Shown: positions 47,401 to 50,484 of the stretch, piece after piece
Position numbering within the stretch: the stretch's first letter is position 1
Layout of the letters: the number at the start of each line of letters is the position of its first letter
Assembly (NCBI GenBank): GCA_965214495.1
Contig: OZ243958.1
Location: 405,989-469,988, forward strand
Source of the DNA: Alphaproteobacteria bacterium
Lineage (GTDB): Bacteria; Pseudomonadota; Alphaproteobacteria; UBA7887
Length of the DNA: 64,000 nt
Direction of reading: 5' to 3'
Position numbers and translations under genes: made by a program
Notes under the pieces: model-generated
Databases searched by the model: none
The model's input: the letters and a program-made list of their open reading frames with translations, nothing else
What the model was told of the DNA's origin: nothing

Positions 47401-47502
47401 CGAGGGGTCGAGGGCGTTGGCGTGCGGCGGCCGGCGTCAGAAGGCGAAGCTGACCGAAGCGGCGGCGGCGATCTCCCGGTCGTCGGTGCCCAGGCCGCCG
47501 GC

Positions 47503-50484
47503 CTAGATCCCGGCGCGCAGTTCGCCGCCGTTCCAGCCCAGGACCCCGCCCAGCCCGAGCAGAACCCGCGTCCTCTTCCCCTCCGACCGCAGACGCTCGC
47601 CCGATACGACCACTTCCGTCGTTGCATCGAACCAGTGCTCCAGGTCCACCGAGCCGCGGACCGAAAGGGACCGCTCTCCGCCCGGGCCGCCGCGCAGGAC
47701 ACGAACGGTCTCCGCCGCCAGACCGACGCCGCCGCCGCGCCGTTCCCCGTCCGTCAGCGAGACCCGCGAGTCGACGGCGTCGGCGAACCGCTCGACGGAG
47801 ACGTCGGAACGGACCAGCCATGCCCGCGGCGTCAGCGCCGTCTCCGGCCCGACCGCGACCCGCCTCCCCGCCTCGGCGCGGAGCGAAAGGGTCGAAGCCC
47901 GCGTATCCGCGTCGATCGCGCCCCGGCTCGACGCCGCCGGCGGGTCCGCCGACAAATCGACATCGTAGCGGGTGAGCGACGCCCGGGCCAGGCCATAGGC
48001 GCCGTCCGCACCGCGCCACGCCGCGGCCAACGCGACGCCGAAACCGTCCACTTCGATCTCGCCCGCGCCGGTCGGCGAGGCCACGTCCGCCGATCCCCGG
48101 ACGTGGCGGACGGAAGCCGTGCCGGTGATCTCGTCGTCGAGGGAGATATCCGTCCCGGCTTCGGCCTCATATCTGTCGAAATCGTATTCGGCGCCCGCTA
48201 CCGACCGGTTCGCGCCGTAGCTCCCCGTACTGCCCGAGAGACGCCCCCACACCAACGGGCCGGGCGCACCCCCCGGCTCCCGCCCGGACAGGGACGGCGC
48301 CGCCCGTTCGAGCCGCAGCAGAAATCCCGGCAGCGCTTCGTAAACAGCCGAACGCGCGGCATATATCTCGAGAAAGTCGGCGGCGGAGAAGTTCGGCCCT
48401 TCGGCGCCGGCGTGCAGGGAAATGTCCCGGGCTCCGTTCGCGACCGCGAGATTCGATCGCCTTTCGCCGTCGTGCAGCGTCACGCCGTTGACGACGATGG
48501 CGGTCCGGCCGGGATCGATCAAGGCGCCGTCGGTCTCGATGCCGTTGTCGTTGCGGACATCGCCCCGGACCGCTCTCGCCCACCGGCGGCCATCGAGATC
48601 CACGTCGACGAGGAGCTTGCGATCCATGCCGCCGGCGCCGCCTGCGGCATGGACGGCGATGCCGGAATCGGCTCCCACGCTTCCGCGCGGCCCGACCGAG
48701 ACCTTGCCGCCGCCGCCGAAATACAGTCCCGCCGCGTCGCCGGAACCGCCCCGCACCCGGCCGTCCACCGAAACGGTCTGCTTCGCATAGCCGTCGTCGT
48801 CCCTGCCGGCGCCGCCGAGCGCCATGCCGTGGCCGCCCGCGGTAACGCTCGCGCCCCGGGTCAGGGAAACGTCGATGCCGGAGCGGGCAGCGTCGCCGGT
48901 ATTCGTTACCTCGATGCCCGCGGCGGATTCGACATCGATGCTGCCGCCCGCCATATCGATCTCGACGAGACCCCGCGACCGGCCGATATAGACGCCGTTC
49001 CCGTCGCTGCTGCCGACATCGACGTCAACCTCGGTCAAGTCGATATCGATATCGCCGTCGCCCCAGTGATGCGCATATATGGCGGTGTCCCATTGTCCGT
49101 CCCCTTTCGCGGCGATGCCGCCGCGCGTGACCGAAACACCGATGCGGGAGTCGCCGTTGGCGATCAGACGGAGCGCATCGCCGTCGGTCGTCTCGATGCC
49201 GGTATCCGTAAGGTCGATGTCGATGTCTCCCTGACCGATCAGGTCGATACCGATGGCGGTTTCCCCGGCCGTCTTGACGCTGCTGCGTTCGAGGTTCACG
49301 TCGATATCGCCCGCGGACTCGTGCCAGGCCAGGACGCCCTCGGCGTGCTCGCCCCGGGTTTCGATCGCAGTATCCGAAATGTCGATGCTCAGCGGGCCGC
49401 CGTTCTGCGAGCCACGGTTGAAATACGCCGCATAGACGCCGCTGGCGAGGGAGCCTCGAGTTTCGATCCTGCTCCCCGAAATGTCGATGTTCAACTCGCC
49501 CGCATTTATATGGTCGGCCCGCACGCCCATGGAGCCGCCCCAGGGGACCGTCGCGTCGCCTCTGGTCAGAATGTGGAAATTCTCGACAACGATATCGATA
49601 TCGCCCGGGCGCGCGTCGGCGCTATTGTAGCTGTTGCCCAGAACCGCCAGCAGACCTTCGGCTTGCGTGCCGGAAGTTTCGACATCGGGATTGACGGCGT
49701 CGAGGGTTTCCGCTCTCGCCACGATCCTGACGTTGCCGCTGCCGCTGTTGTCGGCTCTCACGCCGACGCCCCCGTGGCCCGTCGTCTCGACGGTGCCGCC
49801 GGAAAGGTCGATCAGGATATCGCCGTCATAGTCCTCGTCCCTGAACTCGTCGGGATACCGGTCGTTATCGCCGTCGTATCGACTGTCGATCGCCGCCCAG
49901 ATGCCGCTCCCGACGCTTCGAATCGAGCCGCCGGTCATATACACGTTTATATCCCCGGACGTTCCCTGTTGGCGCACGCTGATGCCCCGCGGCCCCGTCG
50001 TCGCCTGCTCGGCGGGACCGTCCGCAGTCAGGTCGGCGGACGACCTGACGGTAATGTCGCCGTCGAAATCCGGCCCGGTATCGACCCAGAAAGCGCCGTA
50101 ATAGGCCCAGTTGTCGTCGGGCAGGTTCCATCGCCGGCCATGGTCGTCCGTCTGTTCGTCGACCGTAACCTGGGGCCTGCCGCGAGTACCGGCGATTCTC
50201 AATCCATCCGCCAGCTCGAACACGTAATCCGTCTTCCGCGTATTCTCCGGTAGCTGGTAGAAGACATTGCCTTGGGACGGATCGTAATTGCCGTCGTCGC
50301 ACACGACGGTCCGCGAACCCGTCGCGGGGCCGCATTCGTCAACGGCTCCCGCCCCGCCGCCCCCGAGAGCGAAGACAACGGACAGTCCGAGGACGGGCCA
50401 GCTCCTGCACATTCGGTTGAGTTCGTTCGCGACGCGAGGCGCCGACAGGCGATGCGGCTCAGAGACCGGTGACGTGGGAGTCAT
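47503..50484 (-). CDS. Autotransporter (type Va) with a beta-helix (pectin-lyase-like) passenger. The coding sense actually continues 22 codons past an in-frame TAG to 47437.
   Basis: 993 aa. ATG 50484 has an SD (agagggaaaga). An extended signal peptide precedes the hydrophobic core WPVLGLSVVFALGGGGAGAV. The passenger carries many GDIDIDLT/GxIxV beta-helix rungs, and the beta-barrel domain follows. After the TAG at 47503-47505 the same frame reads AGGLGTDDREIAAAASVSFAF-TGA, the canonical terminal beta-strand ending in Phe. Confidence 0.75.
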   Translation of the reverse strand: MTPTSPVSEPHRLSAPRVANELNRMCRSWPVLGLSVVFALGGGGAGAVDECGPATGSRTVVCDDGNYDPSQGNVFYQLPENTRKTDYVFELADGLRIAGTRGRPQVTVDEQTDDHGRRWNLPDDNWAYYGAFWVDTGPDFDGDITVRSSADLTADGPAEQATTGPRGISVRQQGTSGDINVYMTGGSIRSVGSGIWAAIDSRYDGDNDRYPDEFRDEDYDGDILIDLSGGTVETTGHGGVGVRADNSGSGNVRIVARAETLDAVNPDVETSGTQAEGLLAVLGNSYNSADARPGDIDIVVENFHILTRGDATVPWGGSMGVRADHINAGELNIDISGSRIETRGSLASGVYAAYFNRGSQNGGPLSIDISDTAIETRGEHAEGVLAWHESAGDIDVNLERSSVKTAGETAIGIDLIGQGDIDIDLTDTGIETTDGDALRLIANGDSRIGVSVTRGGIAAKGDGQWDTAIYAHHWGDGDIDIDLTEVDVDVGSSDGNGVYIGRSRGLVEIDMAGGSIDVESAAGIEVTNTGDAARSGIDVSLTRGASVTAGGHGMALGGAGRDDDGYAKQTVSVDGRVRGGSGDAAGLYFGGGGKVSVGPRGSVGADSGIAVHAAGGAGGMDRKLLVDVDLDGRRWARAVRGDVRNDNGIETDGALIDPGRTAIVVNGVTLHDGERRSNLAVANGARDISLHAGAEGPNFSAADFLEIYAARSAVYEALPGFLLRLERAAPSLSGREPGGAPGPLVWGRLSGSTGSYGANRSVAGAEYDFDRYEAEAGTDISLDDEITGTASVRHVRGSADVASPTGAGEIEVDGFGVALAAAWRGADGAYGLARASLTRYDVDLSADPPAASSRGAIDADTRASTLSLRAEAGRRVAVGPETALTPRAWLVRSDVSVERFADAVDSRVSLTDGERRGGGVGLAAETVRVLRGGPGGERSLSVRGSVDLEHWFDATTEVVVSGERLRSEGKRTRVLLGLGGVLGWNGGELRAGI

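Follow-up and report, generated by a model that had tools for sequence, protein, structure and literature searches.

An in-frame TAG precedes the codons for the conserved last β-strand of an autotransporter gene in an alphaproteobacterial genome

The 64,000-nucleotide stretch of DNA analyzed here (the window) comes from an Alphaproteobacteria bacterium of the GTDB lineage UBA7887 (NCBI GenBank assembly GCA_965214495.1, contig OZ243958.1, positions 405,989 to 469,988 of the forward strand) and carries on its minus strand a type Va autotransporter gene with an in-frame TAG before the codons for its last barrel strand. The open reading frame (ORF) as written, 47503..50484, starts with ATG, encodes 993 aa, and ends in ...ELRAGI, with ATC (Ile) at 47508-47506 and the TAG at 47505-47503. 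Past the TAG, the same frame continues for 21 sense codons (47502-47440; AGGLGTDDREIAAAASVSFAF) to a TGA at 47439-47437. The minus strand here reads GGC GAA CTG CGC GCC GGG ATC TAG GCC GGC GGC CTG GGC ACC GAC GAC and continues CGG GAG ATC GCC GCC GCC GCT TCG GTC AGC TTC GCC TTC TGA, and its translation across both stops ends in ...LGWNGGELRAGI, stop, AGGLGTDDREIAAAASVSFAF, stop. The analysis shows the stop itself, the homology of the tail to the C termini of relatives, the family fold, and that TAG serves as an ordinary stop in the window. With some reserve, we favor the view that the autotransporter is interrupted by a real nonsense mutation and is a null allele.

The 21 codons behind the TAG have the properties of a genuine C terminus. 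The third position is G or C in 20 of them, so that the coding-type composition has been kept. We aligned the read-through form of the window sequence with 13 homologues (14 sequences) and read another homologue, P0008, separately, whose C terminus has the same ending. All 14 homologues of the same barrel type whose C termini were read pass the TAG column and end 21 to 22 residues later in Phe, and this Phe is the same in every one of the 14 aligned sequences. The TAG column itself is occupied by Ser (6), Ala (2), Asn (1), Gly (1), or a gap. We also read 80 further related loci, mostly from sponge-associated metagenome-assembled genomes (MAGs), in frame to the first stop. None of them stops at the TAG-equivalent column, and the turn and last-strand pattern G-L-G-S/T-x-D-x-x-Y...F is present in all; 75 have a final Phe at the very point where the window tail ends. 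On a family hidden Markov model (HMM) built from these 80 relatives, the truncated form scores 318.8 bits and the read-through form, which aligns end to end over model positions 1-300, scores 335.2 bits. This gain of 16.4 bits compares with 1.6±1.3 bits for 200 shuffled tails (320.4±1.3 bits; maximum, 326.0), placing the real tail about 11 standard deviations above them. A terminal β-strand with an aromatic end is absent from the ORF as written, and ...SVSFAF is found only in the codons after the TAG. Since these codons encode the conserved last turn and strand of the family, with its Phe end, the ancestral gene end is, on this comparative evidence, at 47437. A first-pass annotation made from the window sequence alone had described the TAG and the in-frame continuation to the TGA accurately to the base and had proposed that the continuation is the last β-strand, ending in Phe, and that the true end of the gene is at 47437. 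The alignments, the endings of 75 of the 80 relatives, and the HMM gain bear out both proposals.

The autotransporter nature of the gene, also proposed in that annotation, is confirmed by its domain content and by the family fold, which is like that of the EspP, Hbp, AIDA-I, BrkA, and NalP barrels. Pfam recognizes the autotransporter β-domain PF03797 at residues 745-986 (E value of 1.1e-20; 74.9 bits against a cutoff of 26; profile positions 1-246 of 255), while no NCBIfam model matches the protein. A search of a large protein collection returned the identical 993-aa protein, P0001, which is called in NCBI/ENA on one contig of 3.26 Mb and is the only member of its cluster, and 20 relatives. 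Because the best of these are 41 to 45% identical over 92 to 99% of the length, the gene, except for its stop, is judged by alignment to be full-length and collinear with the family; outside the lesion it is intact over 97 to 99% of homologue length. Residues 1-744, which include the passenger, have no Pfam match. The passenger carries repeated G-D-I-D-I-D / xGIxAxHxG motifs and aligns over its full length with homologues at 41 to 45% identity, and the GDIDID...GIxAxH repeat is no more than suggestive of a β-helical passenger. By inspection rather than by a signal peptide predictor, MCRSWPVLGLSVVFALGGGGAGA followed by VDECGP aligns with homologue N termini such as ...ADVLA|ADECGP. A single-sequence search of the PDB gave no match, and a 14-sequence profile of the C-terminal domains matched the BrkA and EspP translocators there. 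The family of the gene product is a classical type Va autotransporter family, and it is uncharacterized, with the nearest relative only 45% identical and the passenger lacking a Pfam match. Read through to 47437, the minus-strand gene 47437..50484 would encode a signal peptide, a repetitive passenger of about 650 aa, a linker helix, and a 12-stranded outer membrane barrel.

Structural models indicate what the stop would take away. For the last 315 residues of the closest homologue, AlphaFold predicts a long helix and then 12 strands (pLDDT of 84.7), with strand 11 at residues 287-296, the TAG column at residue 294, and strand 12 at residues 302-313. In Foldseek comparisons, this model matches the EspP, Hbp, AIDA-I, BrkA, NalP, and EstA barrels with TM scores of 0.6 to 0.72 over about 310 columns. 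When the window allele is modeled as written, the helix is followed by only 11 strands, and strand 11 measures just six residues. Since the TAG column lies inside strand 11 of the homologue model and the truncated protein is modeled with 11 strands, the lesion is predicted to cost the barrel the end of strand 11 along with the final periplasmic turn and the whole of strand 12. In outer membrane barrels, the final strand carries the β-signal, with the consensus ζxGxx[Ω/Φ]x[Ω/Φ], which is engaged by the β-barrel assembly machinery (BAM) and pairs with strand 1 of BamA (PMC10945584). Because the amber codon precedes the natural TGA by 22 codons, the product would lack strand 12 and the terminal F-x-F β-signal. 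By analogy with other barrels, a barrel without the tail and with an odd strand number should not close or insert. It is likely that the 11-stranded product would fail in outer membrane assembly and be degraded, and we propose a null allele because strand 12 would be the strand that BamA and BamD engage and that must pair with strand 1 for barrel closure.

As for the origin of the stop, the homologue alignment runs column for column on both sides of the TAG. This rules out a double frameshift as the cause and indicates that the lesion is a substitution within one codon rather than a pair of compensating frameshifts. The column is most often occupied by Ser, and a single base separates TCG from TAG, for which reason a change of TCG (Ser) to TAG at 47504, C to A on the coding strand and G to T on the plus strand, is likely the most parsimonious history. 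The first-pass annotation had placed a nonsense mutation or base-calling error at about 47505; the lesion stands, while the changed base is most likely the middle one of the codon, 47504, and not the first.

The solved type Va translocators, EspP (3slj and 2qom), Hbp (3aeh), AIDA-I (4mee), BrkA (3qq2), NalP (1uyn/1uyo), and EstA (3kvn), share with the window family PF03797, a helix and 12-stranded barrel (predicted in the family), and a C-terminal aromatic-x-aromatic strand. In contrast to these, the window family is only 14 to 18% identical to the solved barrels, has a passenger without a Pfam domain, and occurs in uncultured, mostly sponge-associated MAGs of many phyla, and the window allele as written lacks strand 12. 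Compared with the β-signal known from PhoE, OmpC, and EspP-BAM intermediates, the segment that is removed in the window allele is the final strand. The last eight residues of the window tail, AASVSFAF, fit the two aromatic positions of the consensus (PMC10945584) but have Ser at the Gly position, and an internal signal in the −5 strand may persist in the truncated product. Disabled autotransporter or adhesin genes are known in host-associated bacteria, such as the sca genes of Rickettsia and the autotransporter pseudogenes of Yersinia pestis and Bordetella. The window gene resembles these in having one disabling lesion in an otherwise full-length surface protein gene, with neighboring adhesin genes also disrupted, but differs from them in that the biological nature of its lesion is an inference from one assembly.

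The distribution of the barrel family is, in our opinion, a more interesting side observation than the stop codon. The 80 loci (L001-L080), often several per genome, lie in MAGs of very different phyla, including Nitrospirales, Alpha- and Gammaproteobacteria, cyanobacteria, Gemmatimonadota, Acidobacteriota, and Trueperaceae. Many of these MAGs bear names that refer to sponges (Poriferihabitaceae, Porisulfidus, sponge-bin Synechococcus, Nitrospirales, Trueperaceae, and Acidobacteriota). This spread suggests habitat-linked horizontal transfer of the family.

In the interpretation that we favor, the ancestral codon, the loss of function, and the biological rather than technical nature of the change are what we infer, and the lesion would have arisen recently, by a real mutation in the population that was sequenced, at a locus where both neighboring giant adhesin genes are also disrupted. 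The damage to these neighbors, which includes a 28-nt deletion that is atypical of base-calling error, argues for a real lesion. It is possible, though in our judgment less probable, that the TAG is instead an error of the consensus or of base calling, or reflects a minority call or one from a strain chimera, and that the organism has a sense codon, probably TCG, and an intact gene of 1,015 codons to 47437. Several observations point in that direction and weigh against a real mutation. The 63-nt tail is perfectly preserved, with its natural stop in place, and this lack of any decay is as compatible with an error as with a recent mutation. The public protein P0001 comes from one contig and has no companion in its cluster, and the relatives are from long-read MAGs. 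No second allele was found in scans of genome and metagenome contigs with the exact DNA flanks (NNN at the stop codon), and a protein-seeded metagenome scan found no relative. Four frame-breaking insertions nearby in the window each add a single base, three of them in runs of G5, G6, and G7, the last being the only G7 run in the window; this is a signature of long-read consensus error, and the assembly may be imperfect. The TAG also directly abuts a GATC at 47509-47506 (GGGATCTAGGCC), a context known to provoke nanopore substitution errors, and if the assembly is nanopore based, this site would be prone to methylation-linked miscalls. As to function, many autotransporters also have an internal β-signal in the −5 strand (PMC10945584), and with such a signal, recognition by BAM may not be wholly lost. 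Against an error stands the finding that the lesion is a substitution rather than a homopolymer indel, together with the deletion in the neighboring gene, which base-calling does not explain. Substitutions are rare in consensus sequences of the HiFi type. The relatives were found in chromosome-scale MAGs from sponge-associated lineages, and a substitution error would be out of the ordinary if the source assembly belongs to that high-accuracy long-read class. Some 17 housekeeping genes of the window also look intact, but this says little since they hold just 2 of the 28 G/C runs of six or more bases in the window. With long runs almost confined to the adhesin genes, a comparison of lesion rates between housekeeping and adhesin genes fails to discriminate between error and biology.

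A real TAG could also be read through, by an amber suppressor tRNA, by near-cognate decoding, or as pyrrolysine, giving some full-length product at a low or regulated level. The tail is intact and in frame with a natural stop, as would be needed, and low-level read-through of UAG exists in bacteria. However, TAG is the true stop of at least three other genes in the window, encoding an HDAC-like protein (in which the Pfam profile is matched in full up to 2 aa before the TAG), a DUF6524 protein, and a P450, and this rules out a reassignment of TAG. Neither a tRNA gene nor an Rfam element was found within the window, the RNA around and after the stop folds with less stability than its shuffled versions (z = +2.0), and the relatives have an ordinary amino acid in the TAG column, with a stop in none of the 80 loci, which leaves a recoding without conservation. 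On these grounds programmed recoding of UAG was rejected, and we consider read-through in any of these forms very improbable. A separately translated last-strand peptide is ruled out because the 21 codons contain no ATG, GTG, or TTG. A site search in the 36-nt spacer between the extended gene and its convergent neighbor found no terminator-like site, and this search and the folding against shuffled controls together rule out a terminator or a read-through-stimulating hairpin in the tail. Even harder to credit is a reading in which the family naturally includes a functional short form with the ending ...RAGI and the downstream match is fortuitous. Gene callers accept the 993-aa ORF, and the Pfam match stops at profile position 246, before the TAG. 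But solved and predicted barrels of the same fold have 12 strands while the truncated model has 11, the tail stands far above its shuffled versions, and no relative ends at ...RAGI, an ending in orthologues that the first-pass annotation had named as the result that would speak against it. We regard the natural short form as already refuted by the survey of the 80 loci and the shuffle test.

For annotation, the gene is best described as a 1,015-codon autotransporter gene interrupted at codon 994, that is, as a pseudogene or a suspected assembly error, and not as the intact 993-aa protein of the public sets. A real lesion would mean that this lineage has turned off an adhesin-type autotransporter beside two other disrupted giant surface protein genes, in keeping with the turnover of host interaction genes in symbionts. 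An erroneous TAG would be a sign of local consensus problems in a long-read MAG. A broken allele or a one-base assembly error is an ordinary finding, and neither outcome alters what is known of autotransporter biogenesis. The features of the gene and the end of its convergent neighbor are collected in Table 1.

Table 1. Coordinates of the autotransporter gene, its parts, and the adjoining end of the convergent gene in the window
Feature	Position	Strand	Basis
Autotransporter ORF as written, 993 aa	47503..50484	-	Identical P0001 in NCBI/ENA
In-frame TAG, aligned to Ser (most relatives), Ala, Asn, or Gly	47503..47505	-	Homologue alignments
21-codon tail AGGLGTDDREIAAAASVSFAF: periplasmic turn (GGLGxxD) and putative β-strand 12 with F-x-F end (β-signal)	47440..47502	-	Alignments, family HMM
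TGA, ancestral (natural) stop directly after the terminal Phe, as in relatives	47437..47439	-	Sequence and relatives
PF03797 autotransporter β-domain, residues 745-986	47527..48252	-	Pfam
Predicted barrel β-strand 11, shortened by the stop; domain residues 287-292	47509..47526	-	Model of truncated protein
Predicted pore-spanning linker α-helix before the barrel, ORF residues 702-725	48310..48381	-	Model; equivalent helix in homologue model
Passenger region, ORF residues 48-700	48385..50343	-	Translation, Pfam, homologue alignment
Likely signal peptide MCRSWPVLGLSVVFALGGGGAGA, residues 25-47, then VDECGP	50344..50412	-	Inspection of sequence
Last reading-frame piece of the convergent giant surface protein gene, end ...GLQYRIRF-TGA	42889..47400	+	Sequence

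The autotransporter gene lies between two giant surface protein genes that are both split in the assembly. The convergent plus-strand gene is about 28.5 kb long, begins with a signal peptide at a GTG start at 18859, ends in ...RIRF at 47400, and is read in four frame pieces. A 6,323-aa ORF, the preceding 1,509-aa ORF, and the following 1,503-aa ORF are pieces of this one gene, which contains three +1 frameshifts: one near 20056-20061, one at 24324-24330 in the G7 run, across which a Calx-beta domain continues, and one at 42884-42888 in a G5 run, across which an FN3 domain continues. Pfam does not recognize PF03797 in the last 466 aa of the product. On the other side, an LRR/Calx-beta/He_PIG surface protein gene at 50964-60401 on the plus strand is split into three ORFs. 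It has an extra G at 53612-53617, where G6 stands in place of the G5 of the paralogous repeat, and at about 56646 a gap of 28 nt relative to the paralogous repeat unit, which gives an apparent stop at 56653-56655 and a restart at 56652. The four single-base events, all extra bases and three of them in G runs, look like long-read consensus error or slippage, while the 28-nt deletion is unlike a base-calling error.

The longest homopolymer in the window, a C13 tract at 18664-18676, is intergenic and lies 183 nt upstream of the GTG start of the giant gene, and by analogy it resembles the poly-C tracts of phase-variable promoters. One could imagine that the amber stop, the four frameshifts, and the C13 tract together make up a coordinated OFF state, reversible in part, of a locus with three adhesin genes, and that the organism is an uncultured symbiont, probably associated with sponges. 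Switching would then be by slippage, and the autotransporter would be made at a trace level by leaky read-through of the UAG; we give this scenario little credence.

Two further features of the window are of a compositional kind. Within the final 2 kb, between a small ORF and a P450 gene, the G+C content is about 0.59 at 62044-63475, against about 0.70 to 0.74 elsewhere, and no RNA gene was found in this stretch. Inside the LRR/Calx-beta gene, G6 runs recur every 348 nt (53294, 53643, 53991, 54339, and 54687; span 53294-54692), a period that marks a 116-aa tandem repeat with a third-position GC of 0.97 to 0.98.

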